A stretch of DNA of 50,185 nt from Candidatus Eiseniibacteriota bacterium (GTDB lineage: Bacteria; Eisenbacteria; RBG-16-71-46), in the NCBI GenBank assembly GCA_035275545.1, contig DATEMP010000086.1, positions 1 through 50,185 on the forward strand, given 5' to 3'. Below the pieces are notes generated by a model. That model was not told the origin of the DNA. It saw only the letters and a list, made by a program, of their open reading frames with translations, and did not search any database. Positions 1,718 to 48,483 of the stretch are shown here, one piece after another; within the stretch, counting starts at the first letter, position 1, and each line of letters opens with the position of its first letter. The translations under genes and the position numbers were made by a program.

Positions 1718-1922
1718 GGCACCAGGCTGCTATCCCGCTGTCTTGACGCCGGATAGGCGGTTCGCCCACACTGCACGTCGGTCCCGCTAATCCATCCCGC
1801 ACCGCTGACCGATGACACCACTGAACCCTTCCGGGCGCTGCCCTGGGTACGCCGAGGGCCGCCTCGGCGTGGTGCTGCACCCGGATCACTCCATCCATAG
1901 ACACCATCTTCGAGGATCGAGC

Positions 1923-5958: not shown

Positions 5959-6267
5959 CGGGCGACTCCTCACGATCGAAGCATGACGCACGTTGGATGC
6001 CGTTCAACGGTTTCGGGGGACATGGACACCCACACGAAGTCGTTTAGCAGCACGCGAATTCTAATGCAGTGTGAATTGCGGTTTCCATAGAGGACGGTGG
6101 GAATCGCGCTGTTTTCATCACGCCTTGGGCGAATTGACCCCGCGGTGCCGTCGCGGTGACGTTCGCGAGACATGGCGCAAAGCGAGAACCCCCCGGACCC
6201 GGATGCGTGAAGACATCCGTTTCCGAGGGGCTTCGTCAGGCCGCCGCTCCCCACGTCGGCCCGTGAA

Positions 6268-18308: not shown

Positions 18309-18678
18309 GCGATGGGGATCACCTGGGACCATCGTCGTATATGGAGACGGATCGCATAATCCTACCGGGCGGCGGCGTCCATGAACAGTGCGGGAATGAT
18401 CGGGAGCGTTTTCGCCGCGTGATGTGCCGGGCATTTCGCCGAGCGCCGATCGCGCGCGGGGAATCCACCTCAGCCGCGCTCGTCAAATCACTCAGGGCCG
18501 GGGCTCCGCGACGGGACGCGGCGGAGTCGGCGCGGGGCCGCGCGCACGGATGACGAGGACGAACCGGTGACAGGCCAACGTCCTAGCTCGCGAACCGCGC
18601 AGGGTCTCTTCTGCGGCACGGAACTCGCGATGCCGTCGGCTGTCGCCGAATCCCTGCGCGGGCCGGAGGCTCCGGCCT

Positions 18679-20655: not shown

Positions 20656-20769
20656 CAGCAGGATTCACCCGGGGTCGCATGCGACCGGGGCCGTCAGCCC
20701 CGGCCGCCGTGCCGCCCCGGTCATCGACGGCATGAACGCAGCTTGCTCAACACATCCCAGGAGGATGCC

Positions 20770-23214
20770 GTGAAGGTCACAGCAGTACGCACCACCCGGC
20801 GCGCGCCGGCCGCGGTCCACGCGCTTGCCGTCACTCTGGCCCTGACGCTGGTGGCGGCCCCTGCCGCACTCGCCGCCACGGTCTACTACGTCGACAACCA
20901 GAGCGCGAACTGCTCGAACACCGGCACGGGCACCGAGGCGCAGCCCTACTGCACCATCGGCGCCGCGGTGGCGGCCCACAAGGGACCGGACGTCACCATC
21001 ATCGTGAAGCCCGGCACCTACCGGGAGCAGGTGACCGTCCCTGCCTCGGGTGCCGCGGGTACCCCCTTCATCATCCAGGCGCAGGGGCCGGGCGTGATCG
21101 TCGACGGTGCCGACAGCTTCGCCAGCGCCGGCCTCTGGACCGCGGCCACCGGATCGGTGTGGCTCGCGTCTTCCGTGAGCTGGGCGCCGCTCCAGGTATT
21201 TGTGGACGGCGCGCGCCTCACGCCCTCGACGGCGTCGTTCGATCTCCTGCCGGTGAACTCCTTCACCTGGGTGAGCGGGCAGGGCCTGTACGTGAACCTG
21301 GGAGGCGCCAATCCCGGCACGCGGCAGACCCTCGTGGGCCGACGGAGCTACGGGTTCAACATGTTCACGAAGTCGTGGGTGGTCATCGACGGCTTCGAGA
21401 TCACGCACACCGAGAGCCGCGGCATCTACATGCAGACCGGGTGCTCCGACCTCTCGATCCTGCGCAACCGGGTGAGCTTCGCGAACAGCTACGGGATCCA
21501 GGCGAACGGTTGCAGCCGCATCGCGATCGAGGAGAACACGATCACGGACGGCAACTTTCACGGCATCGGGCTGACCGCCAACACCACCGCCTGCACGATC
21601 CGGAACAACGAGTCGGCTCGAAACATCGACCCGGCGATCCGACGCGCCAACGGGCTGTACCTGAACCTGTCAACCGCCAACGTCATCTCCGGGAACCGCC
21701 TCCACGACAACCAGGACAGCGGCTCGAACCTGGGGAACGGCTCGAACGACAACACCTTCTTCAACAACCGGTCGTGGAACAACGGCGACCACGGCTACGA
21801 CCACCTGGACGCCGCGGGGAACACCCACTCGAACGACCTCGCCTACGGCAACTACAAGGACGGCTTCTCGATCGAGGGCAACTCGCCGAACTGCCGGCTC
21901 TACAACTGCATCGGCGTCAACAACGGACTCACGACCAACGAGTTCGACCTGTGGGTGAACGACCTCTCGTCGATCGGCTTCGTCTCGGACTACAACCTGT
22001 TCTGGAACTCGACCAGCCAGACCCCGTTCAAGTACATCACCACGCCGTACGCGACCCTCGCCGGATACCAGGCCGCGAGCGGGCAGGACGCGCACTCGCT
22101 GCAGGCCGATCCGCGCTTCATGAACGGCGCGTCCGGCGACTTCCGGCTGATGGCCGGCTCGCCGGCCATCGACGCCGCCAACTCGTCCGCGCCCGCATGG
22201 CCGGCACTGGACGCGGCCGGAAACCCGCGCCTCGACGATGCGGGAACCGTCAACCATGGAGCCGGCCCGGTCCTGTTCGCGGACCTGGGCGCGCTCGAGT
22301 TCGCGGGAACCACGCCGCCGCCGCCGCCCACCGACAATCCTCCCGTGGTGGTCGCCCCGGCGACCGTCACGGTGAGCGAAGGCGTGCAGCTGACCATCAA
22401 CGTCACCGCCTCGGATGCCCAGGCGATCGCCTCGCTGGTCGCGGTGACCAACACGCTGCCGGCCGGGAACAACGCGACCTTCACGCCCAACCTCACCAAC
22501 ACCGCGGGCACGCTGCGCTGGACTCCGACCTACACGGACTCGGGCACCTGGTCGGTGCGCTTCGTGGCCACCAATGCGCTCACCGGCTCCGCGATCACGT
22601 CGATTCGCGTGGTCAACGTGGACCGCGCGCCGGTCGTGAGCGCTCCGGTGCAGGTCAAGACCGCCCCGGGTGCGAACGTGACCTTCAGCGTCACCGCTTT
22701 GGATCCGGACGGCGACGCGATCCAGTCCCTGACCATGGTCAAGGTGTCGATGCCGGCCGGCAACAACGCGGCGTTCGTCGCGAACGCCACGAAGACCGCG
22801 GGCACCTTCACGTGGACGGTCGGGAACCAGACCGGCAACTTCCGCGTCCGGTTCGACGCGGCGAACGCCCTCAGCGGCTCGGCGACCACGCAGATCCAGG
22901 TGAAGAGCAACGGTACCAAGGACCTGATCGCGGAGACCATCGCGCGTCCGGAGTTCTCGAACGGCTTCCCGAATCCCTCGGGAGGCATGGTCGAGTTCGC
23001 GCTCGATCTGCCCGAGGCGGCCGACGGGCGCTGGACGATCTTCGATCTCCAGGGCCGGGTGGTGTGGTCCGAGGACCGCACGTTCGAGGCGGGCCGCACG
23101 CGCCTCGCGTGGGACGGGATGACGCTCCAGGGTGCGCGCGCTCCGAGCGGGCTCTACCTGGTCCGCGCCGCTGCGGGCAGCGCGGTGTTCACGCGTCGCA
23201 TCGTGCGCTTCTAG
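20770..23214 (+). CDS. Secreted right-handed parallel beta-helix protein (paralog 2) with two Ig/cadherin-like inserts and a FlgD-Ig/T9SS-like C-terminal domain
   Basis: ORF 20743..23214 (TTG). The GTG at 20770 is preceded by AGGAGG with a 5-nt spacer. Collinear with paralog 1 (same YYVDNQS, KPGxYRE, VFVDGARLT and NNRSWNNGDHGYDH blocks). It adds two ~95-aa repeats (APATVTVSEGVQLTINVTASD... and APVQVKTAPGANVTFSVTALDPDGD...). Confidence 0.85.
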   Translation: MKVTAVRTTRRAPAAVHALAVTLALTLVAAPAALAATVYYVDNQSANCSNTGTGTEAQPYCTIGAAVAAHKGPDVTIIVKPGTYREQVTVPASGAAGTPFIIQAQGPGVIVDGADSFASAGLWTAATGSVWLASSVSWAPLQVFVDGARLTPSTASFDLLPVNSFTWVSGQGLYVNLGGANPGTRQTLVGRRSYGFNMFTKSWVVIDGFEITHTESRGIYMQTGCSDLSILRNRVSFANSYGIQANGCSRIAIEENTITDGNFHGIGLTANTTACTIRNNESARNIDPAIRRANGLYLNLSTANVISGNRLHDNQDSGSNLGNGSNDNTFFNNRSWNNGDHGYDHLDAAGNTHSNDLAYGNYKDGFSIEGNSPNCRLYNCIGVNNGLTTNEFDLWVNDLSSIGFVSDYNLFWNSTSQTPFKYITTPYATLAGYQAASGQDAHSLQADPRFMNGASGDFRLMAGSPAIDAANSSAPAWPALDAAGNPRLDDAGTVNHGAGPVLFADLGALEFAGTTPPPPPTDNPPVVVAPATVTVSEGVQLTINVTASDAQAIASLVAVTNTLPAGNNATFTPNLTNTAGTLRWTPTYTDSGTWSVRFVATNALTGSAITSIRVVNVDRAPVVSAPVQVKTAPGANVTFSVTALDPDGDAIQSLTMVKVSMPAGNNAAFVANATKTAGTFTWTVGNQTGNFRVRFDAANALSGSATTQIQVKSNGTKDLIAETIARPEFSNGFPNPSGGMVEFALDLPEAADGRWTIFDLQGRVVWSEDRTFEAGRTRLAWDGMTLQGARAPSGLYLVRAAAGSAVFTRRIVRF

Positions 23215-31583: not shown

Positions 31584-31834
31584 GACGTCCTCCGTCGTGA
31601 CCGGCCGCGACCGCGACGACGTGCAGCAGGCGCGTGATCCGGTCATGGGGTTATCGGCCACGGGCACCGTTTGGCACAGCGAAACTCGATTCGCGACGTG
31701 TTCGCTGTGGCCGCAGGCACCTGCGGTTTGTTAGCTTATCGTCACGCGGGCCGCGTCCCGTCCGCCATCATTCGAAGCAAGCGATGTTTCTCGCGACGGC
31801 GTCCCTGGCTTCGGGGCCGCCTAGGGGGGTCACG

Positions 31835-34645
31835 ATGAGGAGTCGCTACGCCCTGGGAATGCTCGTCATGGTGCTGGCGGTCGCGGGGGGCTTGTCCCGC
31901 GCGGCGCTCGCCAAGGATCCGCCGACAACCCTGCCGATCACGATCGACGCCCTCACGGTCGAGGCGACCGTGGCCCGGGGACCGATCCAGGTGGGGGTGG
32001 TGTCCGGCGTGCCGCGCACCATCTACAACGTCAGCTACGCGGTGACCCCGGCCGACCCCGAGATCATGGCCCGCCAGTATCTCAAGGAGAACCGCGCGAT
32101 CCTGCGGCTCTCCGATCCGAGCCTCGCCGACCTCTCGGTGCGCGCCACGCGTCGCGGCCTGGCGGGCACGACGGTGCGGTTCGAGCAGACGTTCCAGGGA
32201 ATCCCGGTGCTGGTGCCGGACGTCGCGGTGACCATCGATAAGGCCTCGCGCGTCATGTACGTCACCAACGGTTACGCGCCGGGTGTCGCGGTCACCTCGA
32301 CCACGCCGTCCGTGAGCCTCGCCTCGGCGCGCGCAACCGCGATCGCGCACCTGAACGTGAGCGGTACCCTCGCGAGCGAGACCTCGCGGCTGGTGGTGGT
32401 GCCGGAAGACAAGGGCGGCCGCCTGGCGTGGCAGTTCAAGATGGTGCCCCAGGCGACCCCGGTCGGTGACTGGGAGGTGCTGGTCGACGCGAAGACCGGC
32501 GTCGTGTTCCACGCCGTGGACCGGGCGCTCTACGCCACCGGCTCGGGCTTCGTGTACGACCCGGATCCGCTCGGCACCGCGCACGCAACGTACGGACAGG
32601 CGGGCTACACCGACGCCGCCGACGTCACCACCGCGCAGCTCGACGCCGCCCGCTCGAGCCGCACGCTCAACGACATCACGGACATCGGCGGCGGGATCTA
32701 CAAGCTCCAGGGGCCGTGGGCGCAGATCGTCGACTTCGAGGCCCCCAACAAGGGCCTGTTCACGCAGGCCAGCACCACCTTCAACTTCGACCGTGCCGCG
32801 GACGCGTTCGAGGCGGTCAACTGCTACTTCCACATCGATCAGATCATGCGCCACATCAACGTGACGCTGGGCATCCCCCTCACGCCCTTCCAGTACGTGG
32901 GCGGTGTGCGCTACGACCCCTCGGGTCTGAGCGGCCAGGACAACTCGCATTACATTCCCAGCAGCGGCCAGATCGCGTTCGGTGAGGGGGGTGTCGACGA
33001 CGCCGAGGACGCCGACGTGGTCATCCACGAGCTGGGCCACGGCATCCACGACTGGCTCACCTCCGGCTCGCTCTCGCAGGTGAACGGTCTGAGCGAGGGC
33101 ACCGGCGACTACGTCTGCCAGTCCTACAGCCGCAGCCTCAACCAGTGGGCGTCCAACGAAGCACCGTACAACTGGACGTTCAGCTGGGACGGTCACAACG
33201 AGTTCTGGGCGGGACGCATCACCAACTACGGTGCGCTCTACCCGGGCGGACTCACCGGGGCCATCCACACCGACGGACAGATCTGGGCGACCTGCCTGAT
33301 GAGGATCTGGAACGACATCGGCCGCAACCAGACCGACAAGGCGGTGTTCGAGGGGCTGTCGATGACCAACTCGAGCACCAACCAGAACGACGCCGCGCAG
33401 GCGGTGCTGCAGGCGGCGGTGGCGATGGGCTACTCGAACTCCGAGATCAGCGCCATGGCGTCCCGCATGCAGGCCACCGGCTACACGGTGAGCGTGGGCG
33501 TCGATTACGTGGCGAGCGCGTTCACCGACGCGTGCCCGACCGATGCCGGCCAGAACAACGGCATCCTGGAGCCGGGGGAGGACTCCGACGTCATCGTGAA
33601 CATCAAGGCGGCGACGTTCGCCCGCACCGGGGTGAGCGGCGTGCTGACCACCAGCACCCCGGGGGTGACGATCGTGGACGGCAACGCGACCTGGCCGGAT
33701 CTCTCGCCGGGCGTCTCCACGCCGTGCGACGCCCCGTACTTCAAGGTGCACCTCGATGCGACCGTCCCGTGCCTTTCGACCATCAACTTCCAGCTCGCGG
33801 TCACCAGCAACGAGGGCGGGCCGTTCCCGATGGCATTCACCCGCGGCGTGGGGTCGGCGGTGACGCCGTCCGGGCTGCCGCTCGCGATCCCGGACGCCGC
33901 GCCGGCGGGAGTCACCAGCACGCTGTCGGTGGGCTCGAACCTGACCCTCACCGACGTCAACGTGCGGGTCGCCATCACCCACACCTACGTCGGGGACCTC
34001 TTCATCAAGATCAAGAGCCCGGCCAACACCGAGGTCATCCTGCTGGATCGCCCGGGCGTTCCGGCGTCGACGTTCGGCTGCGGCGACAACGACATGAACG
34101 TCACGTTCGACGACGCCTCGGGCACGGTGCTCGAGAGCTTCTGCTCCGGATCGACGCCCTGGTTCAACGGCACCGGGAAGCCGGTGGGATTGCTCTCTGC
34201 GTTCAACGGGCAGTCGACGCAGGGTAACTGGGTGCTCACCGTCTCCGACCTCGCCGGACAGGACCTGGGCAGCGTCACCGCCTGGGAGCTCATCACCCAG
34301 CCGCCGATCGTGGGCGTGTGCGACACCTGCGCGAACCTGGTGGGCGTGCCGCTTCCGACGCGGGGAAGCCAGATCGCGCTGGGCGCCAATCACCCGAATC
34401 CGTTTTCGCTCACCACCGACATCACCTTCGACCTGCCGCGGGCAGGACGCGCGACGCTGCGCATCTACGACGTGGCCGGCCACGTGGTCGCGACGCTGGT
34501 GGACGGCGAGCTGCCCGCCGGCCCGCACACGGTGAAGTGGGACGGGAGGGACCAGTCGCGGACCAAGGTCGCCTCGGGCGTCTACTTCTACAAGCTTTCG
34601 ACCGGGAACGATCACGGCATGCGGCGGATGCTGGTCGTGCACTAG
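31835..34645 (+). CDS. Secreted zinc metalloprotease (thermolysin-fold, M4/M36-like) with a propeptide, a proprotein-convertase P-domain and a FlgD-Ig/T9SS-like C-terminal domain
   Basis: ORF 31634..34645. ATG 31835 gives the signal peptide MRSRYALGMLVMVLAVAGG. An FTP/PepSY-like propeptide is present. HExxH is VVIHELGHGIHD, with a downstream LSEGTGDY. The P-domain is VRVAITHTYVGDLFIKIKSP..GNWVLTVSDLAGQDLG. The C-terminus is NPFSLTTDITFDL..LRIYDVAGHVV..GVYFYKL. Confidence 0.88.
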   Translation: MRSRYALGMLVMVLAVAGGLSRAALAKDPPTTLPITIDALTVEATVARGPIQVGVVSGVPRTIYNVSYAVTPADPEIMARQYLKENRAILRLSDPSLADLSVRATRRGLAGTTVRFEQTFQGIPVLVPDVAVTIDKASRVMYVTNGYAPGVAVTSTTPSVSLASARATAIAHLNVSGTLASETSRLVVVPEDKGGRLAWQFKMVPQATPVGDWEVLVDAKTGVVFHAVDRALYATGSGFVYDPDPLGTAHATYGQAGYTDAADVTTAQLDAARSSRTLNDITDIGGGIYKLQGPWAQIVDFEAPNKGLFTQASTTFNFDRAADAFEAVNCYFHIDQIMRHINVTLGIPLTPFQYVGGVRYDPSGLSGQDNSHYIPSSGQIAFGEGGVDDAEDADVVIHELGHGIHDWLTSGSLSQVNGLSEGTGDYVCQSYSRSLNQWASNEAPYNWTFSWDGHNEFWAGRITNYGALYPGGLTGAIHTDGQIWATCLMRIWNDIGRNQTDKAVFEGLSMTNSSTNQNDAAQAVLQAAVAMGYSNSEISAMASRMQATGYTVSVGVDYVASAFTDACPTDAGQNNGILEPGEDSDVIVNIKAATFARTGVSGVLTTSTPGVTIVDGNATWPDLSPGVSTPCDAPYFKVHLDATVPCLSTINFQLAVTSNEGGPFPMAFTRGVGSAVTPSGLPLAIPDAAPAGVTSTLSVGSNLTLTDVNVRVAITHTYVGDLFIKIKSPANTEVILLDRPGVPASTFGCGDNDMNVTFDDASGTVLESFCSGSTPWFNGTGKPVGLLSAFNGQSTQGNWVLTVSDLAGQDLGSVTAWELITQPPIVGVCDTCANLVGVPLPTRGSQIALGANHPNPFSLTTDITFDLPRAGRATLRIYDVAGHVVATLVDGELPAGPHTVKWDGRDQSRTKVASGVYFYKLSTGNDHGMRRMLVVH

Positions 34646-34889: not shown

Positions 34890-35840
34890 ATGAGTCGCTT
34901 TGTGACCGCGTTGCTCCTGCTCGTCATTTGTGCCGTGCCGGCTCTTGCACAGGAGAAGACCGACACCAAGGCGGGCCAGGCCACCGAGGCCTGGTTCAAT
35001 CCCATGCAGGGCCAGGTGATCCTCGCCGACGTGGCCGAGGACGAGGGCACCAACAACGCCTGCCCGGGCCAGGTGCTGGGCTGCGGCAACGTGCTCCGGC
35101 CTGCGGCGATCACCGCCGGGGAGAACGACTACTTCTCGTTCACCGCCACCGCCGGCGACGTCATCACCTTCGGCACCGACGCCGACGGCACCCCGACCGT
35201 GGACACCTTCATCCACCTCTACAACGCGGACTGCAGCACCGAGCTGGCCACCGATGACGACGCCGGTCCCGGCCTCTACTCGCTGCTGACGCTGTGCGCC
35301 CCCTACACCGGCACGTACGTCGGGCGGGTGCGCGGATTCAATGCAACGGCGGCCGGCCTCTACAAGGCATTCGTCACCTGCTCACCGTCCGGCGGCTGGG
35401 CCGACAACTGCGCCGGCGCAACGCAGCTCCAGTGCGGCGACATCAGCCTGTCCGGGAACACCGGCTGCAGCATCAACGACTACACGCTGCCGGCTGCGAA
35501 CCCCTGCACCGGCTTCACCGCGGCGGGGCGTGACCAGGTGCTGGCGATCAACGCGGGCGTGGGCGGCTCCGTGAGCCTCACCTACACCTCCACCGCCGAC
35601 GGATCGATCTACATCCTCAGCTCGTGCGCTCCGATCACCTGCGTGGCGGGCGCGGATGCCACGCTCACGGGGCAGCCGGAAGTGCTGAACTACAACTTCC
35701 CGAGCGCGGGCACCTACTACCTGATCCTCGATTCGTTCGGGACCAACACGGCCGGCTCGTGGACGCTGACCGGCTCGTTCGCCTGCGCGACGCCGGCCGC
35801 GACCGCGACGTGGGGAACGCTCAAGACGCTCTACCGGTAG
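34890..35840 (+). CDS. Secreted protein with two PPC (pre-peptidase C-terminal)-like domains and a TWGTLKTLYR C-terminal tail
   Basis: ORF 34698..35840. ATG 34890 is preceded by GGAGGA. Signal peptide MSRFVTALLLLVICAVPALA. PPC-like pattern: DYFSFTATAGDVITF, IHLYNADC, DDDAGPG, YTGTYVGRV. A second Cys-rich copy follows. Confidence 0.75.
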   Translation: MSRFVTALLLLVICAVPALAQEKTDTKAGQATEAWFNPMQGQVILADVAEDEGTNNACPGQVLGCGNVLRPAAITAGENDYFSFTATAGDVITFGTDADGTPTVDTFIHLYNADCSTELATDDDAGPGLYSLLTLCAPYTGTYVGRVRGFNATAAGLYKAFVTCSPSGGWADNCAGATQLQCGDISLSGNTGCSINDYTLPAANPCTGFTAAGRDQVLAINAGVGGSVSLTYTSTADGSIYILSSCAPITCVAGADATLTGQPEVLNYNFPSAGTYYLILDSFGTNTAGSWTLTGSFACATPAATATWGTLKTLYR

Positions 35841-35854
35841 GAGCGCAACGTACG

Positions 35855-35894
35855 GCGGCCGCCTGATCGACGATCAGGCGGCCGCTTTCGTTTG
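35855..35894 (+). terminator. Rho-independent terminator between convergent genes
   Basis: gcggccgcctgatcg-a-cgatcaggcggccgc has 15-nt complementary arms and is followed by tttcgtttg. Confidence 0.8.
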
Positions 35895-35916
35895 GGCGGT
35901 GATGGATGCGGCGGGC

Positions 35917-37029
35917 TCAGACCACCGCGACCTTGACGCAGTGGATGGGCGGAAGCCCGTCGAACAGGCAGCTCCATTCCTCGCCGCCCTCGTGGCCGAT
36001 CCACAGCTGCCCGGTGGTGGTGCCGAAGTAGAGCGCCGGAGACTTGAGCTCGTCCACGTCCATGCCGTCGCGCAGCACCGTGAACCAGCTCTCCTTCTTC
36101 GGCAGCCCCTTCGCGAGCCGCCGCCACGAATCGCCGCCGTTCTCCGTGCGCCACACCGCGGGCGCGGCCCCGGGGCAGGTGCGGGTCGCGGGCTCGAGCG
36201 GCACGACGTACGCCGTATCGGCGTCGTGCGGGTGGACCACGATCGGGAAGCCGAAATCGGAGGGCAGCCCCTTGGCGATCGACCGCCAGGTCCGGCCGTG
36301 ATCGTCGGTGCGCAGCACGCCGATGTCCGGCCGGCGTCCGCCGGGACCGTCCCACTCGCCCCAACCGCCGTGGTTCTGCATGTAGAAGCGGCCGGGCGCG
36401 TCCTTGTGGCCCGCGATCTTGTGCACGCACTGGCCGAACTCTGGGAAGGGGTCGGGCGTGAACCCGGCGCCGACGCCGGTGTTCGAGGCCTTGAAGGTGC
36501 TCCCGCCGTCCTCGCTCAGGTAGTGCCCGCCGGTCGAGATGCCGAGATGCACGCGGTCACCGTCGCGCACGATCGTGTGCATGCACAGGCCACCGTTGCC
36601 CGGCTGCCACTTGCGCGCGTGCTCGTGATTGCTGATGCCCGGCATCATCTCCCAGGAATCGCCCTGGTCCGGGCTCCGGAACAGGGCCGCGGGCTCCACG
36701 CCGCACCAGAGCTCCTTGCGACCCGGTCCCGGCTCGATCGACCAGATGTTCGCCAGTGCCCGCCCGTCGTCCTGGGGAAACGCGGGCGCGGACTTGGTCT
36801 CCTTGAAGGTCTTCCCGAGATCGGTCGAGTGCAGCACCTTCATTCCGAAGAACGCATTGCAGCTCGACGCGTAGATGCGCGGGGTGCCGCGCGTGTCGAT
36901 GAGGGTGGAATAGACCGCCACGCCCGGGCTGAACGGTCCGCGCAGCGTGAAACGATTGCGGGTCTTCGACCCCTCGGCGATGAACAGGCCTTTCTTGGTG
37001 CCGATACCGAGGATCACGCGCTGGGGCAT
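35917..37029 (-). CDS. BNR/Asp-box repeat beta-propeller protein (sialidase-fold, cytoplasmic, function unknown)
   Basis: Full ORF with no signal peptide. Asp-box-like motifs: STDLGKTF, SPDQGDSW, SEDGGSTF, TDDHGRTW, TENGGDSW. The ATG is preceded by GGAGG, which is encoded by the upstream gene's Gly-Gly codons. Confidence 0.85.
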   Translation of the reverse strand: MPQRVILGIGTKKGLFIAEGSKTRNRFTLRGPFSPGVAVYSTLIDTRGTPRIYASSCNAFFGMKVLHSTDLGKTFKETKSAPAFPQDDGRALANIWSIEPGPGRKELWCGVEPAALFRSPDQGDSWEMMPGISNHEHARKWQPGNGGLCMHTIVRDGDRVHLGISTGGHYLSEDGGSTFKASNTGVGAGFTPDPFPEFGQCVHKIAGHKDAPGRFYMQNHGGWGEWDGPGGRRPDIGVLRTDDHGRTWRSIAKGLPSDFGFPIVVHPHDADTAYVVPLEPATRTCPGAAPAVWRTENGGDSWRRLAKGLPKKESWFTVLRDGMDVDELKSPALYFGTTTGQLWIGHEGGEEWSCLFDGLPPIHCVKVAVV

Positions 37030-37307
37030 GGTCGACCTCCGGAAACCGCGGGAAGAATGGTGATCACGTCGCCCGGGACGAGCGTCGTGTCGAGCCCGTC
37101 ACGATCGCGCACGTGGTCATTGTTGACGAACACGCCGATGTGCCGGCGCACCGCGCCGGTCTCGTCGCAGACGTTGCGATGGAGCGCAGGGTAGCCGACC
37201 GCGAGCTGCTCCAGCGCCGCGCGCACGCTCGCGGCCTCGACTCGCACCTCGGAAGCGCCTCCGCAATCGGCACGCAGCGGACCGGGAACCAGAATCGTGA
37301 TCGTCAT
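37014..37307 (-). CDS. MoaD/ThiS-family ubiquitin-fold protein with a 6-residue tail after the Gly-Gly
   Basis: ORF 37014..37355. From ATG 37307 the product is MTITILVPGPLRADCGGAS...VFVNNDHV...LVPGDVITILPAVSGG-RPCPSA. The 3' end overlaps the BNR gene by 16 nt. Confidence 0.8.
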   Translation of the reverse strand: MTITILVPGPLRADCGGASEVRVEAASVRAALEQLAVGYPALHRNVCDETGAVRRHIGVFVNNDHVRDRDGLDTTLVPGDVITILPAVSGGRPCPSA

Positions 37308-37534
37308 GGCCGGGTGCGAGCCTAGCGCGGGGCAGGACGGCGTCGCAAACCCCAACGAGTTCGCCGAACGTTACAGATCGGTGGCCGACGCTTTGTACGA
37401 TTGGTTTAGAGCCACTCACCGTCCGGTTCGAGCCGTTCTCGATGGCGCTCGCACCTCATGTGCGCTACGGTCAAAGTGTTCGTCGGGCCGCGTACTCATC
37501 CAGTTCCATGGCTTCACGATAGGAGGAGCCCCCC

Positions 37535-38119
37535 ATGCGCAGCTTCGTGACTCCGTTGTTCCCTCGCGCGCTCCTGACCGTGATCGCGGCGGTCGCACTC
37601 GCCGTGACCGCGTACGCTGCGCCGGTTCCATACTCGGCGGTGCTGTCCGGCCCCGCGGAGTCACCGCCCAACGCCTCGCCGGGCACCGGATCGTCGCTGG
37701 TGGAGATCGACGCGGTCGCGCACACGATGCACGTCCACATCGACTTCACGGGGCTGATCGGCAACACCACCGCGAGCCACATCCACTCGCCCACGGCGGT
37801 GGCGGGCACGGGAACGGCGGGCGTCGCCACCACCACGCCGACGTTCGCCGGCTTCCCGCTCGGCGTGACCTCGGGCAACTACGACATCGTGCTCGACATG
37901 ACGCAGGCGTCGAGCTACAACCCGAGCTACGTCACCGCACACGGCGGCAACACGACGCAGGCCGAGGCGGATCTGTTCGCGAGCATCGCCGCCGGCACCG
38001 CGTACGTGAACGTGCACAGCAGCCAGTTCCCGGGCGGCGAGATCCGCGGATTCCTCGTCCCGGGCGCGACGCCCACCAGCGCCACCACCTGGGGTCGGAT
38101 CAAGACGCTCTATCGGTAG
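37535..38119 (+). CDS. Secreted CHRD-domain protein with a TWGRIKTLYR C-terminal tail
   Basis: Signal peptide ..LLTVIAAVALAVTAYA. CHRD pattern: LSGPAESPPNASPGTGS, ASHIHSP, AYVNVHSSQFPGGEIRGFL. Confidence 0.82.
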   Translation: MRSFVTPLFPRALLTVIAAVALAVTAYAAPVPYSAVLSGPAESPPNASPGTGSSLVEIDAVAHTMHVHIDFTGLIGNTTASHIHSPTAVAGTGTAGVATTTPTFAGFPLGVTSGNYDIVLDMTQASSYNPSYVTAHGGNTTQAEADLFASIAAGTAYVNVHSSQFPGGEIRGFLVPGATPTSATTWGRIKTLYR

Positions 38120-38139
38120 TCGGAACCACGCACATCGCG

Positions 38140-38175
38140 CGGCCATCCCCGGCGACGGGGGTGGCCGTTCGCGTG
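38140..38175 (+). terminator. Terminator hairpin between convergent genes
   Basis: cggccatcccc-ggcgac-gggggtggccg forms an 11-bp stem (one G-U pair) followed by ttcgcgtg. Confidence 0.6.
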
Positions 38176-39267
38176 TCAGGCGTCGCCGCCTTCACCGGCG
38201 AGCACCACCACACCGGTCGCCTTGAACGAGGCGAACACCTCCGCTCCGGGCACGAGCCCGAGCGTCTCGACCGCGTCGCGCGTCACCTGGGCGGCGAGCG
38301 GAGGCCGGGTGGAGAGCAGGACCCGGACGCGCTCGCCCTGGGGCGGCTCCGGGATCACCTCGTCGACCACGCCGCGCAGCACGTTGCGCGCGCTGCCGGC
38401 GGGCGCCGCGCGCGAGACCACGATGTCGTGCGGATGGATGACGAGCCGCACCGCGCCCTCAGCGCCCGGGTCGGGCACCGTGAGCGTCGTGCCCTCGCAC
38501 GCCACGGCCACGAGCCCGTCCGCGTGGCGCGCCGCGATCGTCCCATCCACGAGGTTCACGCCCAGGAACTCGGCGACGTAGCGCGAGCGGGGCCGGCGCA
38601 CGAAATCGTCGCGCGTGCCGGACTGCGTCACCCGCCCCGCCTCGAGTACCGCGATCCGCTCGCCGAACGCCAGCGCCTCGGTGGGATGGTGGGTCACGAA
38701 CAGCGTCGCGCACGAGAGCCCCTGGAGCGTGCGCCGCAGCTCGGCCCGCACCGTGCGGCGCGTCCTGAGATCGAGCGCCGAGAGCGGCTCATCGAGCAGC
38801 AGGATCTCGGGATCGAGGACCAGGGCACGGGCGAGCGCCACGCGCTGCTGCTGCCCGCCCGAGAGCTGGTGGGGCCGCCGCGAGGCGAGGGCGCCGAGAT
38901 CGAAGCGATCGAGCGTCGCCGCCACGCGCCGCTCGATCTCGCGGCGCGGGCGTCGCTGGGCCCGCAGCCCGAACGCGACGTTCGCGCGCGCGTCGAGGTG
39001 GGGGAAGAGCGCATAGTCCTGGGCCACGTAGCCGATCGGCCGGCCCTCGGGCGGCACGCTCCACCGGGCGGCGGGATCGACCAGCGGCTCCCCGTTCCAC
39101 GCGATCCTGCCGTCGTCGGGATCGAGCAGCCCGGCGACCAGCCGCAACAGCGTGCTCTTGCCCGATCCGCTCTCGCCCACCAGCACCGTGACGGCACCGG
39201 ACGGCGCGGCGAGCGCGGCCTCGAGCGTGAAGCTACCGATGCGGCGGCGAACCCGGATGTCCAGCAC
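38176..39267 (-). CDS. modC: Molybdate ABC transporter ATP-binding protein with a C-terminal TOBE domain
   Basis: ORF 38176..39453. The GTG at 39267 gives (M)LDIRVRRRIGSF. Walker A is GESGSGKST, the signature is LSGGQQQRVALARAL, and Walker B is LLLDEP. The TOBE tail is NVLRGVVDEV...FASFKATGV. Confidence 0.9.
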   Translation of the reverse strand: MLDIRVRRRIGSFTLEAALAAPSGAVTVLVGESGSGKSTLLRLVAGLLDPDDGRIAWNGEPLVDPAARWSVPPEGRPIGYVAQDYALFPHLDARANVAFGLRAQRRPRREIERRVAATLDRFDLGALASRRPHQLSGGQQQRVALARALVLDPEILLLDEPLSALDLRTRRTVRAELRRTLQGLSCATLFVTHHPTEALAFGERIAVLEAGRVTQSGTRDDFVRRPRSRYVAEFLGVNLVDGTIAARHADGLVAVACEGTTLTVPDPGAEGAVRLVIHPHDIVVSRAAPAGSARNVLRGVVDEVIPEPPQGERVRVLLSTRPPLAAQVTRDAVETLGLVPGAEVFASFKATGVVVLAGEGGDA

Positions 39268-40102
39268 CGGAACGCACCCCCATCCATCCCGGGGGCGCCG
39301 AGCCCAGCCCCAGCAGGAGACCGAACGACATGACCAGCAGCAGCACCGAGAGCACCACCGCGGCGTCCAGATCGGACTGGAGCGCCACGTAGACCGCGAG
39401 CGGCATGGTCTGCGTGACCCCGGGCAGGTTGCCGGCGAAGGTGATGGTTGCACCGAACTCGCCCAGTGCGCGCGCCCCGCTCAACGACACGCCCGCCACC
39501 AGGGATGGCAAGGCGAGCGGCAGCATGACGCGGAGGAAGCGCTGGGTCTCGGAGGCGCGCAGCGTCGCCGCGGCGTCGAGGAGGCGCGGGTCGACGCCCG
39601 CGAACCCGGCGCGTGCGGGAGCGATGAAGAACGGCGCCGCCATGAACACCTGGGCGAGGATCACCCCCACGGTGGTGAACGGCAGACTCACGCCGAACGC
39701 GCTCAGCCAGTGCCCCGCGAAGCCCATCCTCCCGAACGCCATCAGCAGCGCGAAGCCGGCCACCGTAGGAGGGAGCACCATCGGCAGCTGGATGAGCACC
39801 TCGAGCAGGCGCTTGCCCCGGAACTCGCGGGTGGCGAGCAGGTACGCGGCCGGAGTGCCGAGGATCACGACCAGCGCCGTCGCGGAGATGCTGGTGAGGA
39901 GGCTGAGCCGCAGCGCCTCCAGCACCGCCGGCTCACCGAGGCGCACCAGCAGCGTCCGTGGGGATACGCGCGCGATCAGGCCGACGAACGGCAGCGCGAG
40001 CAGCAGGACCAGGACGCCGATCGCGGCGATCGCCAACCCTGGGATCAGCGGAGGCGACGGACGCCCGGCAGCCGCGAAGCGGGCATCGGGCGCGTGGCTC
40101 AC
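39233..40102 (-). CDS. modB: Molybdate ABC transporter permease
   Basis: 3' part of ORF 39233..40891. GTG 40102 overlaps the modA stop as GTGA. Has a BPD-transporter EAA-like loop (AAATLRASETQRFLRVMLPLALP) and FGATITFAGN. Confidence 0.9.
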   Translation of the reverse strand: MSHAPDARFAAAGRPSPPLIPGLAIAAIGVLVLLLALPFVGLIARVSPRTLLVRLGEPAVLEALRLSLLTSISATALVVILGTPAAYLLATREFRGKRLLEVLIQLPMVLPPTVAGFALLMAFGRMGFAGHWLSAFGVSLPFTTVGVILAQVFMAAPFFIAPARAGFAGVDPRLLDAAATLRASETQRFLRVMLPLALPSLVAGVSLSGARALGEFGATITFAGNLPGVTQTMPLAVYVALQSDLDAAVVLSVLLLVMSFGLLLGLGSAPPGWMGVRSGAGHPGSPPHR

Positions 40103-40908
40103 GGCGTTCCGGTCACCGGCATGATCCCCCGGCGCTGCAGCACGCTCTGGCCGGAGGGGGAGAGCACCAGGGCGACGAACGCCCGCGCGTCGTCGGGCAT
40201 GCGGGACCCCGCGAGGGTAGCGATCGGGTAGCGGGCGAGCACGTTGGCGGGCTCGGGGATCTCGATCGCGCGCACGTACCGGGCGATCGCCGGCGTCACG
40301 TCGGAGCGGTAGACGATCCCCGCGTCCGCTTCGCCGAGCTGCACCTTGCCGACCACCGACTTCACGTTCTCCTCCTCGGAGACCACGTTCGCCAGCACGC
40401 GGCGCGCGTAGTCGACATCGAACCCGTCGAGGCGCGCGAGGTTCTGGAGCATCTCGCGGCTGTACCGGCCGACCGGGACCGCATCGGCTCCCACCACCAG
40501 CTTGATCCCGCGCCGGGTGAGGTCCTGAAGCCGGCCGATCCGCGCGGGGTTGGTGCGGGGCAGGATCACCACCAGCCGGTTGTGCGCGAACACACGGGGC
40601 TCCCCGTCGACCAGCTGCTTCTCGCGCACGTCGCTCATCCAGCGCTCGTCGGCCGAGGCGAACACGTCCGCGGCGGCGCCGTTGGCGAGCTGGGAGGCGA
40701 GCTGCTGCGAACCGGCCAGGTTGAGCTGGACCTCGAGACCCGGATGCTCGCGCTCGAACGCGGTCGCGATCTCCCGGAACGCGTCCGCGAGCGAGGCGGC
40801 CGCGAACACGCGCAGGGTCTGCTTCGGGGCACCAGCCGCGTGCGCGATCGGGACCGAAGAGGTGAAGCACAGGACCGCCGCCACCAGGCATGCACGGAGG
40901 CCCTTCAC
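40099..40908 (-). CDS. modA: Molybdate ABC transporter periplasmic binding protein
   Basis: 3' part of ORF 40099..41367. GTG 40908 overlaps the upstream stop as GTGA. Signal peptide KGLRACLVAAVLCFTSSVPIAHA. ModA pattern: LRVFAAASLADAF, FASAD, VPVGRYS, GIVYRSD. Confidence 0.9.
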   Translation of the reverse strand: MKGLRACLVAAVLCFTSSVPIAHAAGAPKQTLRVFAAASLADAFREIATAFEREHPGLEVQLNLAGSQQLASQLANGAAADVFASADERWMSDVREKQLVDGEPRVFAHNRLVVILPRTNPARIGRLQDLTRRGIKLVVGADAVPVGRYSREMLQNLARLDGFDVDYARRVLANVVSEEENVKSVVGKVQLGEADAGIVYRSDVTPAIARYVRAIEIPEPANVLARYPIATLAGSRMPDDARAFVALVLSPSGQSVLQRRGIMPVTGTP

Positions 40909-41300
40909 GACCCGTCGTCTCCCTTCCCGATGATGACCTCGGTCGACTTGATGACCGCGTAAACGGTGTCGCCTTCGCGCAGGCGCAGCCGCTCGGCGGA
41001 CGAGCGTGTGATCACCGACACCAGCTCCTGGTCGCCGATGCGAACCTGCACCTCGGCCATCAGTCCCTCGACGTTCAGCGCGGTGATGGTGCCGCGCAGG
41101 CGATTCCTCGCGCTGATCGAGAGCGCCGGGGCCGTGGCGGGCACCGGGCAACCGAGCAGGCTCTCGATCTGGTCGCGCCGGAAGAGCCACCTTCGTCCCA
41201 CGCGGACCGCAGGGAGCTTGCCCTCCCGGGCCAGGCTCTGGACCCGTTTGGCGTTCATGTGAAGGAGGTCGGCGGCTTCGCTGACGGTGAGCGTCTGCAT
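40905..41300 (-). CDS. Transcriptional regulator with an excisionase/MerR-type HTH fused to a TOBE (Mop) molybdate-binding domain
   Basis: ORF 40905..41327. ATG 41300 is preceded by AGGAG. The HTH is TVSEAADLLHMNAKRVQSLAREGKLPAVRVGRRWLF. The TOBE domain is SARNRLRGTITALNVEGLMAEVQVRIG..GDTVYAVIKSTEV. Confidence 0.85.
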   Translation of the reverse strand: MQTLTVSEAADLLHMNAKRVQSLAREGKLPAVRVGRRWLFRRDQIESLLGCPVPATAPALSISARNRLRGTITALNVEGLMAEVQVRIGDQELVSVITRSSAERLRLREGDTVYAVIKSTEVIIGKGDDGS

Positions 41301-41407
41301 CGAAACTCCTGCTTGCCTCGGCCTCAAAGGATGCTAATGTGCCGTCGCTGTCGAATGGAAGCCACATTGCACCACATGAAGGACGACATCAAGGAGTTCC
41401 AGCACCC

Positions 41408-46159: not shown

Positions 46160-46894
46160 CTAGTACCGGAACGGATCGAGGCACGGGGCGCATCCCGACT
46201 GCTCCTCCCGCAGCCTCGCCGCGAGCGCGCGATCGATCTGTGACCGGGTGGCGTCGCCGGTCGCTTCGAGCGCCTGCGCGCGCGCCTCGACGACGTACAC
46301 CAGCTCGGGGCGCAGCGTCGCTGCCCGATCGAAGTCCGGGATCGCCTCGGCGTCGCGGCCCAGCAGGCGGAGCGCGACGCCGCGGGCGTAGAACGACTCG
46401 GCCTGCTGGGGCACGGTCGCCACCAGGTGCTCGGCGTCCCGGAGTGCCCCCTCGGCATCCCCGGTCGCCGCGCGGGCCAGGGACCGCCCGCGGTAGAACT
46501 GGGTGTTGGCGGGCTGCCGGGCGATCGCGGTGTCGAAGTCGCCGAGCGATCGGGCGGGCTCGCCGGCCTGGCACGCGACCAGGCCGCGCAGGAACCGGGC
46601 GTAGGGCCGGTCGACCAGCGCCACGTCCCGGTCCAGGTCTGCGCGCGCGAGGTCGAACCGGCGCAGGTGGATCCAGTACCCGGCGCGAGTCTCGTAGTAC
46701 TGCGCGCGGCCGGGGGCGAGCTGGATCGCCCGGTCGAGGTGGGCGCGCTGCTCCTCCATCGACATGCCGGTCTCCTGGCCGCGCAGTGCGGCCAGGTACT
46801 CGCGGTCTGCCGCGTCGTGCCCGCAGCCGGGGCCGGCGATCATGACCACGAGCAGCCACGGAACGGCGCGCATCAGGCGGGCGCGAAGGGTCAT
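46160..46894 (-). CDS. TPR-repeat lipoprotein
   Basis: 3' part of ORF 46160..47617. ATG 46894 sits 6 nt after GGAGGA (ATG 46900 is an alternative). Lipobox VMIAGPGC. TPR-like repeats include AQYYETRAGYW, ARFLRGLVACQAG, TQFYRGRSLA and ESFYARGVAL. Confidence 0.8.
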   Translation of the reverse strand: MTLRARLMRAVPWLLVVMIAGPGCGHDAADREYLAALRGQETGMSMEEQRAHLDRAIQLAPGRAQYYETRAGYWIHLRRFDLARADLDRDVALVDRPYARFLRGLVACQAGEPARSLGDFDTAIARQPANTQFYRGRSLARAATGDAEGALRDAEHLVATVPQQAESFYARGVALRLLGRDAEAIPDFDRAATLRPELVYVVEARAQALEATGDATRSQIDRALAARLREEQSGCAPCLDPFRY

Positions 46895-46930
46895 GTCCAT
46901 TCCTCCGTGGAACGGCCGATAATCCGGCAG

Positions 46931-47716
46931 ATGCCCCCGATCCTGCCACACCGGTTCCTGCCCGCGCTCGCCGGGGCGATCGCCCTCGCCGGGTGCGCAC
47001 CCGCGCTGCGGTCCCCCGAGACGTTCGAGTGGGCCGGGCGGCCGGTCGCGTTCTCGCCGCCGCCCGCCGACTGGCGGCGCGAGGGCTACAACCAGGGCGG
47101 ATGGCTGGGCGCGTACTTCGTGCACGAGCGATCCGTGGGGGAGCGGATCATGGTCGCCGAGCACCACGTGATCTCCGACCGCGATGGCCGCGCGCGCCTC
47201 GCGGAGCTGCTCGAGCGCTTCGACGCCCTGGACGACCGGGAACTCAAGGAGGCGCTCCGCCGGTCGCGATACCGGACCGAGGAGCCGCTCTCGCCCCTCG
47301 AGGCGGAGGTCGCCGCGGGCGTCAACCAGGCGATCGAGCGGGCGATGGGTGCAGAGATCGCGGGAGACCGCGAGGGTGCCCGCCGCGAGATCGGCGGCGC
47401 GGTGCGCGAGTCTCAGCGACTGCGCATCGTTCTGTCCGACGTGCTCGAGCGGGTGGTGTTCCGTCCCGATCGCGCCCAGGAGCCGGAACGATGGGTGGGG
47501 ACCGCGCGGCGCCCGGGTGTGGTGGCGGGCCAGCCGGCGGTGTTCGTGGACTATCGCTTCCGGGGCCCGGAGCGCGTCCTCCGGTGCCGGGACGCGTACT
47601 TCGTGCGCGACAACCACGTGTTCATCGCCAGCTATCTCGGTCTCGAGAAGAATCTCCCGGTCTTCGATCGCGTCGTGGAGTCGATCCGCTTCCCCGAGCC
47701 CGGAGTCCCGCGGTGA
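46931..47716 (+). CDS. Hypothetical lipoprotein
   Basis: 3' part of ORF 46427..47716. From ATG 46931 the product begins MPPILPHRFLPALAGAIALAGCAP (lipobox LAGC). High GC3 and no recognisable domain. Confidence 0.7.
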   Translation: MPPILPHRFLPALAGAIALAGCAPALRSPETFEWAGRPVAFSPPPADWRREGYNQGGWLGAYFVHERSVGERIMVAEHHVISDRDGRARLAELLERFDALDDRELKEALRRSRYRTEEPLSPLEAEVAAGVNQAIERAMGAEIAGDREGARREIGGAVRESQRLRIVLSDVLERVVFRPDRAQEPERWVGTARRPGVVAGQPAVFVDYRFRGPERVLRCRDAYFVRDNHVFIASYLGLEKNLPVFDRVVESIRFPEPGVPR

Positions 47717-48483
47717 GGCGCCTCGTCATCCTGGTCATGGCTGCCACGCTGCTCGCGGGCTGCGCGCCCCAGGCGATCCGGCGGACCTTCGACGTCGGGG
47801 AGCACCGGGTCTCGATGGCGGCCCGGCCCGAGTGGCGGTTCGTCGAGCAGGGCCGGCGGCTGCTCATGCGGCACGGCCAGGTCGGGCTCGCGCTCGAGGA
47901 CCTGGGGCCGCGCGGGCGCGCGGGGATCCGGGCCGAGATCGAACGCGCGCGGACCTTGTGGCGCGGCGGCCAGGACCGGGAGGCCCGCACGCGCATGACG
48001 ATGATCCCGGTTCCCGAGGTGCTGTTCGCAGCACCCGAGCAGCGGCGCGCCTTCTGGGAGACCTGGCACGAGGTCTCGGGCGCGCCCGAGGGGCTGGATC
48101 CGACGCTCGTGGAGGGGCGCTTCGACCGCCTGCTCGACGCGGTCGAAACGCTACGGGAGCGTCCGGCGGACGAACTCGTCGACGACGCGCTGCTGGAGAT
48201 GGGCGAGGACGAGCGCCGGAGCGTGGCCTCGCGGAGCCGGCGCACGGTGGGAGGGCGCGGCGTCATCGTGGTCGTGACCTGGAACCGGCTGAGCCACGAT
48301 GGTGCCCGCCGCTTCGCGTTCGTGGATCACGACGGGCGCATCCTGGTGCTGCGCACCGGCGCCGTGGCCGGCACGCTCGCGGGAGCGGCCGACGACCGGG
48401 CGTTCGAGTCGGTGCTGGAGTCCCTGCGGATCGAGCCGGCCGCCGCTCAGAGCGTCGCGGGGGGGCGCCGCAGCATCACCTGA
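47713..48483 (+). CDS. Hypothetical lipoprotein
   Basis: 3' part of ORF 46993..48483. GTG 47713 overlaps the upstream stop as GTGA. Begins (M)RRLVILVMAATLLAGCAP (lipobox). Confidence 0.7.
   Translation: MRRLVILVMAATLLAGCAPQAIRRTFDVGEHRVSMAARPEWRFVEQGRRLLMRHGQVGLALEDLGPRGRAGIRAEIERARTLWRGGQDREARTRMTMIPVPEVLFAAPEQRRAFWETWHEVSGAPEGLDPTLVEGRFDRLLDAVETLRERPADELVDDALLEMGEDERRSVASRSRRTVGGRGVIVVVTWNRLSHDGARRFAFVDHDGRILVLRTGAVAGTLAGAADDRAFESVLESLRIEPAAAQSVAGGRRSIT

Follow-up and report, generated by a model that had tools for sequence, protein, structure and literature searches.

Why do two exported proteins with unrelated domains end in almost the same ten residues? The question is raised by a stretch of 50,185 nucleotides from a Candidatus Eiseniibacteriota bacterium (assembly GCA_035275545.1, contig DATEMP010000086.1, positions 1 to 50,185), called here the window, which encodes a PPC-domain protein ending in TWGTLKTLYR (35808-35840 including the stop codon) and a CHRD-domain protein ending in TWGRIKTLYR (38087-38119 including the stop codon). 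A preliminary description of this DNA had suggested that the common C-terminal peptide, which we call the tail, could be a compact signal for sorting, attachment or processing, and had noted an almost identical DNA cassette at the 3' ends of the two genes. Comparison with other genomes shows a conserved and modular tag, placed at the very end of Sec-exported proteins and associated with signal peptides. The two proteins of the window are a small part of a large family of tagged exported proteins that is specific to the lineage, and the peptide observation is highly non-random. As to what the tail does, we give a probability of about one half to its being a modular C-terminal address tag that would be read by a protein partner in the envelope. 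The evidence and the alternatives are discussed below.

The two proteins do have unrelated domains, as had been claimed. Searches with the whole proteins find PPC alone in the first and CHRD alone in the second in Pfam, and no match for either in NCBIfam, and both tails are read directly from the translations. Both proteins start with classical signal peptides (MSRFVTALLLLVICAVPALAQ in the PPC protein and MRSFVTPLFPRALLTVIAAVALAVTAYA in the CHRD protein). The C-terminal end is ATATWGTLKTLYR (also given as ...FACATPAATATWGTLKTLYR) in the former and SATTWGRIKTLYR (also given as ...VPGATPTSATTWGRIKTLYR) in the latter, each followed by the stop codon. A six-frame scan finds WG.[ILVM]K..[YF] at only two places in the window, both immediately 5' of a stop codon, and the back-translated pattern TGGGGNNNNMTNAARNNNCTNTAYCGNTRR has two matches in the window against 0.00 expected from 100 dinucleotide-preserving shuffles. 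The window's closest named homologues belong to Candidatus Eisenbacteria. A protein identical to the CHRD protein is present on an ENA contig and on a Logan contig, and the sequencing runs of the region are DNA runs of a rhizosphere metagenome.

The likeness extends to the DNA, where 20 of the final 21 nucleotides and 27 of the final 33 are identical in the two genes. Together with the TAG stop that both genes use, this identity could mean that both had gained a common 3' module through recombination or a mobile element. The codons argue otherwise. The same codon is used at 5 of the 8 residues common to both tails, where the codon usage of the window predicts 4.96, and the other three residues have synonymous codons that differ (Thr ACG/ACC, Gly GGA/GGT and Tyr TAC/TAT). 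TAG is itself a common stop, closing 8 of the 17 window genes tabulated for codon usage. Beyond the stops, ungapped identity falls to the random level (17/80), and the hairpins that follow the two genes are unrelated to each other. The identity of the 3' ends is thus attributable to conservation of the peptide combined with a codon bias that places G or C at 93% of third codon positions. A shared DNA cassette has next to no chance of being the explanation, and we regard it as effectively refuted. The hairpins themselves are where they had been described, within about 15-25 nucleotides of each gene. The one after the PPC gene starts 14 nucleotides past the stop, folds strongly (-39.5 kcal/mol, z -5.4) and has a T-run. 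The one after the CHRD gene starts 20 nucleotides past the stop and is also strong (-36.6 kcal/mol, z -3.8); it has a poor T-run and is not called by the consensus terminator scan.

If the DNA module is set aside, conservation must be sought in the peptide. The strict motif ends 80 of the 120 closest homologues of the CHRD protein (61-92% identity). The remaining 40 have near variants, for instance with Q, H, F or P as the last residue, with R for the K, or with a single residue added at the end; in this family the final residue is occasionally K, H or Q. Five of the 40 extend C-terminally beyond the motif. In an alignment of 120 sequences (the window CHRD protein and 119 homologues), conservation of W186, G187, K190 and Y193 is complete or reaches at least 90%. 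The strict motif is found in 73 of 120 homologues of the PPC protein; the majority of the remainder fit W-G-x-x-K-x-x-Y-R, the residue at -3 being variable. From the homologues of both proteins, the tail is judged to be maintained by selection.

Some of these homologues have further features. The five extended CHRD homologues are P0023, P0024, P0027, P0084 and P0099 (for example ...WGRVKSLYLSS...LEVVPALGL...). The extension is alike in P0024, P0027, P0084 and P0099, and given this likeness it is probably real. Four of the five have a Cys-Cys pair near the C-terminus (DCCMVP, HHCCE); P0084 stops earlier. Among the PPC homologues, P0212, P0220 and P0226 gain Cys-rich GACC...CDPNPC repeats and keep the tail; the repeats, of the form GACC...G.C......C...GG.Y.GDG..CDPNPC, are arranged in tandem and separate the PPC modules from the tail.

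The invariant Lys at -5 brings to mind a covalent tether, in which this residue would serve as the nucleophile for L,D-transpeptidase-like or sortase-like cross-linking to peptidoglycan or another polymer. The Y-R at the end of the tail adds to this a possible likeness to the TKYRK of Braun's lipoprotein (Lpp; established knowledge). The tail ends in Arg, however, whereas Lpp is linked through a terminal Lys; CHRD homologues include K to R variants such as WGRLRALYR and WGQIRNLYR; and in the loci described below the tailed genes have no linked gene for a transpeptidase. We consider such a tether improbable.

The same tail is found far outside these two families. A scan of a species-representative genome collection with a degenerate pattern gives at least 119 further loci, each of up to 8 kb, so that the motif is abundant in relatives, where its absence from further proteins would have told against the proposed signal. 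Among the matches listed, a true stop codon closes 126 of 127, though the pattern permitted TGG as well. The matched open reading frames (ORFs) are roughly 100-630 codons long or are clipped by the end of the locus, with the exception of five short ones of about 60 codons. The listed loci also contain 20 instances that the pattern could not have selected (with Val in place of I/L, Phe in place of Tyr and similar changes), and 19 of them immediately precede a stop codon. The tail is essentially a C-terminal feature. A profile search of a database of 5.8 billion proteins with 40-residue tails gave eight candidates and one match, the word index of that search missing a motif this short.

Conservation continues upstream of the motif, at positions that the scan pattern left free. 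Of 136 tails, 123 have S or T at -10, just before the W. The stretch from -17 to -13, enriched in P, T, V and E, has the form [PA]-[TV]-[PA]-[TV]-[ERK], and Cys is enriched at -18. This Cys, present in many tails, may be what closes a Cys-rich repeat of the kind seen in the PPC homologues. Since information content is at background level upstream of -18, the conserved unit is about 18 residues long, with the consensus C-[PA]-[TV]-[PA]-[TV]-[ERK]-x-[ST]-[TS]-W-G-x-[IL]-K-x-L-Y-R-COOH. Its W, G, K, L, Y and R are conserved at 93-100% across phyla and folds, and the final residue is Arg in 135 of the 136 tails.

A tail this short could be the start of a known domain that is truncated in the window, a possibility that the preliminary description had itself raised. 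It is rejected, as 19 of the 20 instances not forced by the pattern are terminal and the FlgD_ig domains of the same loci do not have the motif immediately before them. The background level of information upstream of -18 agrees with this, and five 30-residue tails have no match in Pfam or NCBIfam at E values up to 10. A 20-column profile of the tail has no match among PDB sequences, again at E values up to 10. The motif and its spellings are not found in the searchable literature, which also contains nothing relevant on C-terminal signals or type IX secretion in Eisenbacteria, and the source annotations call the carriers only "CHRD/PPC domain-containing" or "hypothetical". Within reach of these searches, the tag is undescribed.

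The proteins that carry the tail are diverse. When the final 20 residues are cut off, 109 tailed proteins fall into 69 BLAST clusters, 51 of which are singletons, and 111 tailed proteins contain 31 Pfam families, including NHL, Beta_helix/NosD, LTD, SBBP, DUF7450, CHRD, cohesin, PPC and plastocyanin. They are small, with a median of 249 residues and an interquartile range of 226-276. What most of them share is a predicted export signal. When one crude rule is run over all complete ORFs of 150 codons or more in the listed loci, it finds a signal-peptide-like N-terminus in 56 of 64 tailed ORFs (87.5%) and in 87 of 510 other ORFs (17%; Fisher p ~1e-29), which is the enrichment that the preliminary description had suggested looking for. 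A lipobox-like site is present in 11 of 88 tailed proteins.

According to record titles, the matches listed come mostly from Candidatus Eisenbacteria, followed by Krumholzibacteriota, Latescibacterota, Fibrobacteraceae and a few Gemmatimonadota, with many unlabelled metagenome-assembled genomes (MAGs); none of the at least 119 loci listed has a Bacteroidota label. Several MAGs recur three or four times among these matches, and complete or near-complete MAGs with the tail include OZ244210.1, JADJQR010000001.1 and CAWKEB010000003.1. Seven loci (L021, L034, L047, L067, L081, L095 and L115) have odd labels: Polyangiaceae, Verrucomicrobiia, Humidesulfovibrio, Phycisphaera, Udaeobacter, Gammaproteobacteria and Limnocylindria. 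All of these loci are in bulk-binned MAGs, several of them on short contigs, and they are probably binning errors rather than genuine spread. The match in L047 consists only of a 62-codon ORF and may be due to chance.

Tailed genes also occur side by side. One locus (L032, 1645-6328, plus strand) has six tailed paralogues in tandem inside 8 kb, and an adjacent pair of genes, both tailed and belonging to two related subfamilies, recurs in seven others (L006, L029, L069, L086, L052, L087 and L103). One subfamily has the signature ...YLFRHDGKID.xCPTPT... and the other ...GYxHQxDG.... The recurrence of such pairs and tandems suggests conserved cassettes of tailed genes. Elsewhere a beta-helix protein related to tailed ones (L082, 1152-2625, plus strand) ends in ...TPTTFGRIKAAYRDGGQP, with F for W and six further residues after the motif; this degenerate ending may be a decaying copy of the tag.

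The structural models, made with AlphaFold2 (AF2) from family alignments, place the tail apart from the folded domains. The CHRD domain is predicted with high confidence (predicted local distance difference test, pLDDT, above 95) and is followed by a low-confidence linker (residues 177-185) and a helix (186-193, W186-Y193; pLDDT ~57) that is detached from the domain. The model of the PPC protein (mean pLDDT 88) consists of two beta-sandwiches, the best PDB fold match of which is the tandem collagen-binding domains of ColG (5iku), and of a coil linker that leads to a helix at 308-315 (W308-Y315; pLDDT ~69). At the N-termini, the signal-peptide region of the PPC protein is modelled as a helix (2-18) followed by a disordered stretch, and that of the CHRD protein as a helix (11-23) of low pLDDT. 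The tail would be helical, to judge from these low-confidence models, and the spacing of its variable sites at i+2 and i+5 argues for a helix rather than a beta-strand. On a helical wheel of 100 degrees per residue, W, I, L and Y lie at 240-360 degrees, K, R and G at 40-100 degrees and the two variable positions at 140-200 degrees.

An amphipathic helix of this kind might need no protein to read it. It could act as a direct in-plane anchor, inserting into a membrane leaflet or binding lipopolysaccharide, a model that draws by analogy on the C-terminal membrane-targeting sequence (MTS) of MinD and FtsA and on the amphipathic helix of PBP5 and PBP6. The W/I/L/Y face flanked by K and R is what such an anchor would present, a length of 9-10 residues and a terminal position are also those of a MinD-type targeting sequence (established knowledge), and the listed loci contain no reader gene nearby. 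We nevertheless think a direct anchor unlikely. Lipid-binding helices accept many substitutions, whereas W, G, K, Y and R of the tail are near-invariant over at least 69 protein clusters; the binding of a single unaided helix of about 2.5 turns is weak; and 11 of the 88 tailed proteins already have a lipobox-like N-terminus. Near-invariance of six of the nine residues across phyla and unrelated folds favors one common protein partner over generic lipid affinity.

Another clue to the role of the tail comes from the FlgD_ig domain, a C-terminal domain (CTD) like that of the type IX secretion system (T9SS). The statement that the tail is distinct from the FlgD_ig domain of four other proteins in the window stands: the four are confirmed, and the tail has no match to that domain. 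The four proteins are large and exported, one with FG-GAP, two with beta-helix/NosD and one resembling peptidases with an FTP propeptide and a P-domain. Their coexistence with the tailed proteins means that the same genome uses two C-terminal tags. In three relatives of the PPC protein (P0145, P0153 and P0179), three copies of the second beta-sandwich module are followed by FlgD_ig without the tail. A second swap is seen between L085, which has the tail, and L022, which has FlgD_ig (34% identity over 205 residues). No other proteins neighbour tailed genes as often as FlgD_ig proteins do; they occur in 30 of the at least 119 loci, which is about the frequency that their genomic density predicts. 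The swaps and the shared loci indicate that the two tags coexist in a genome and are interchangeable on related passengers.

Exchange with a secretion-type CTD suits sorting better than it suits turnover or processing, in which the tail would be a degron, or a site for a periplasmic C-terminal processing protease or a PDZ-domain protein, and would set the lifetime or maturation of its carrier. A strictly C-terminal motif is what such a tag would have, and the conserved Pro/Thr-rich stretch upstream could contain a cleavage site. Tail-specific proteases and PDZ domains, however, generally favor hydrophobic C-termini (established knowledge), whereas the tail ends in Arg, and one degron on dozens of unrelated, stable beta-sandwich and beta-propeller proteins is hard to explain. 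A role in turnover or processing of this kind is therefore given only a very small chance.

An address label read in the envelope is suggested by the occurrence of the tag on signal-peptide proteins, at their very end, behind a flexible Pro/Thr linker and in exchange with a secretion-type CTD. The tag would comprise the Pro/Thr-rich linker [PA]-[TV]-[PA]-[TV]-[ERK]-x-[ST]-[TS] and, as the last nine residues of the protein, the amphipathic helix W-G-x-[IL]-K-x-L-Y-R, and would be appended to many unrelated and mostly small (~250 residues) Sec-exported proteins of Candidatus Eisenbacteria and allied phyla of the FCB (Fibrobacteres, Chlorobi and Bacteroidetes) group (Krumholzibacteriota, Latescibacterota, Fibrobacteraceae and some Gemmatimonadota). 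Once the carrier has been exported by Sec, the helix is proposed to dock, through its W/I/L/Y face and the K/R/G flank, into one conserved envelope protein, which could be a receptor or a processing or attachment enzyme. This partner would set the final place of the carrier by retaining it, by attaching it to the surface, covalently or non-covalently, or by passing it across the outer membrane, on a route parallel to, yet distinct from, that of the FlgD_ig CTD carried by other proteins of the same genomes. The tag may also be cleaved, perhaps near P-[TV]-[ERK]. A sorting signal is the best-supported explanation of the tail, and comparison of sequences is its entire basis; both the protein reader and the outcome of sorting are what we infer from that comparison. 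More tentatively, and at somewhat less than even odds, the tail would be the cargo signal of an undescribed sorting or surface-attachment pathway, confined to Eisenbacteria, Krumholzibacteriota, Latescibacterota and Fibrobacterota, that has its own receptor or processing enzyme, recognizes a helical peptide of about ten residues and operates alongside the T9SS-like CTD route.

Several observations weigh against the address tag. The neighbourhoods of up to 8 kb in the at least 119 loci contain no conserved gene fit to be the reader. In an all-against-all BLAST of their ORFs, the recurrent neighbours are FlgD_ig proteins, Ser/Thr kinase-like/TPR proteins and ABC ATPases, at frequencies that match the genomic background, and no sortase, exosortase, rhombosortase, protease or transpeptidase recurs. 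The proposal of a compact sorting, attachment or processing signal has thus fared well as far as the comparative data go (terminal, modular, on exported proteins) and less well in that no sortase or protease lies beside the tailed genes. A few homologues run about 30 residues past the motif, and a free C-terminus is then not absolutely required. The confidence of the AF2 models is low over the tail (pLDDT 57-69), the signal-peptide comparison relies on a home-made heuristic, the carriers among the matches listed are all uncultured MAGs, and the copy number per genome and the taxonomic range seen in the at least 119 loci listed are lower bounds.

The C-terminal sorting tags known from bacteria are either transmembrane-anchored signals cut by sortase-like enzymes or the folded CTD of the T9SS. 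If the address tag is real, a near-invariant helical tag of ten residues that has no transmembrane segment and is common to dozens of exported protein families in several candidate phyla would be a third design. It would imply a reader in the envelope of abundant uncultured bacteria of soil, rhizosphere, groundwater and sediment. The tag offers a simple sequence rule by which envelope and secreted proteins can be marked in these MAGs, and it could serve as a handle for finding the reader by phylogenetic profiling. It might also be of use as a very small portable targeting tag.

The features of the window are collected in the table. The genes between and downstream of the two tailed genes, which encode a BNR/Sortilin-like beta-propeller protein, a ThiS-like protein and a molybdate-type ABC transporter, have no obvious functional link to the tail. 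Further along, two long ORFs overlap on opposite strands with a GC content at third codon positions (GC3) of 0.85 each, and composition fails to pick the gene.

Table. Features of the window, with positions, strand and basis of assignment
Feature	Position	Strand	Basis
PPC-domain protein gene, 316 residues, exported	34890..35840	+	ORF and translation; Pfam PPC at residues 79-148
Layout of PPC protein: signal peptide, two tandem PPC/collagen-binding-domain-like beta-sandwiches, linker, tail	34890..35840	+	
PPC protein, predicted Sec signal peptide MSRFVTALLLLVICAVPALAQ	34890..34952	+	read from translation; cleavage site inferred
PPC protein, extended C-terminal tag CATPAATATWGTLKTLYR	35784..35837	+	sequence; fits family consensus
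PPC protein, tag core W308-R316	35811-35837	+	
Intrinsic terminator after PPC gene, 15-bp GC-rich stem then TTTCGTTT	35854..35896	+	terminator scan
CHRD-domain protein gene, 194 residues, exported, tailed	37535..38119	+	ORF; Pfam CHRD, E 5e-21
CHRD protein, predicted Sec signal peptide MRSFVTPLFPRALLTVIAAVALAVTAYA	37535..37618	+	read from translation; cleavage site inferred
CHRD protein, extended C-terminal tag GATPTSATTWGRIKTLYR	38063..38116	+	sequence
CHRD protein, tag core W186-R194	38090-38116	+	
13-bp GC-rich hairpin between convergent CHRD and ABC-transporter (modC-like) genes	38139..38168	+	fold energy
FlgD_ig C-terminal-domain protein	4234-6003	-	Pfam-type domain
FlgD_ig C-terminal-domain protein	18571-20655	+	Pfam-type domain
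FlgD_ig C-terminal-domain protein	20656-23214	+	Pfam-type domain
FlgD_ig C-terminal-domain protein	31601-34645	+	Pfam-type domain
BNR/Sortilin-like beta-propeller protein	35917-37029	-	
ThiS-like protein	37014-37355	-	
Molybdate-type ABC transporter operon (ABC_tran+TOBE, BPD_transp_1, SBP_bac_11, HTH_17+TOBE regulator)	38176-41333	-	
Long ORF overlapping the next	46160-47725	-	
Long ORF overlapping the previous	46244-47716	+	
806-residue protein, weak DUF5916 match	1809-4229	+	

Among known systems, the tail invites comparison first with the type A CTD of the T9SS (PF18962/TIGR04183, often scored as FlgD_ig, PF13860), a system best known from Bacteroidota. Both stand at the extreme C-terminus of signal-peptide proteins and are modular on unrelated passengers, they replace each other inside one passenger family, and they share genomes, with four CTD-like domains in the window itself and others in 30 of the at least 119 loci. 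The CTD, however, is an Ig-like beta-sandwich of 70-100 residues, whereas the tail is a predicted helix of 10-18 residues without a sequence match to PF18962 or PF13860, and the listed tail loci include no Bacteroidota. The tail is not placed among type A CTDs: it has no hidden Markov model match, its conservation ends about 18 residues in, and the AF2 models give it a linker and an eight-residue helix.

The signals of the PEP-CTERM/exosortase, LPXTG/sortase, GlyGly-CTERM/rhombosortase and MYXO-CTERM systems are likewise short and C-terminal, are found within one lineage on many exported proteins that are otherwise unrelated, and have a small conserved motif with Pro in their upstream part. 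They are tripartite, being composed of a signature motif, a transmembrane helix of about 20 residues and a basic cluster. In the tail only 13 residues follow P-[TV]-[ERK], the invariant Lys among them, with no hydrophobic span, and there is no NCBIfam match; it is thus unlike a transmembrane anchor, as the preliminary description had held. The beta-signal of outer-membrane proteins also differs. It is a terminal aromatic residue, usually Phe or Trp, that ends an amphipathic beta-strand of a beta-barrel protein, whereas the tail ends in Arg, has the spacing of a helix and is carried by soluble beta-sandwich, beta-propeller and beta-helix passengers. The window has an ending of the former kind in its 806-residue protein, whose ...VKVQYTWRF is a typical outer-membrane beta-barrel terminal signal and contrasts with the Arg-ended tail.

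The MTS of MinD and FtsA and the anchor of PBP5 and PBP6 resemble the predicted form of the tail: they are short amphipathic helices (~8-20 residues) at the C-terminus, with one face aromatic/aliphatic and another basic. MinD and FtsA act in the cytoplasm, and the MTS of each is confined to a single orthologous family. Exported proteins of many families carry the tail, and amphipathicity alone would demand a far less strict sequence. The possible likeness to Lpp (...TKYRK) lies in the K and Y-R at the C-terminus of an envelope protein, where the surroundings are helical. The C-terminus of Lpp is cross-linked to peptidoglycan, the epsilon-amine of its terminal Lys being joined to meso-diaminopimelic acid, whereas the tail has its Lys at -5. 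Finally, by analogy alone, the tail recalls the KDEL/HDEL signals and the -SKL of peroxisomal targeting signal 1 (PTS1). These are unrelated to it in sequence, organism and compartment, and they share with it the design of a very short, near-invariant terminal peptide that is placed on unrelated cargo and, in their case, read by one receptor.

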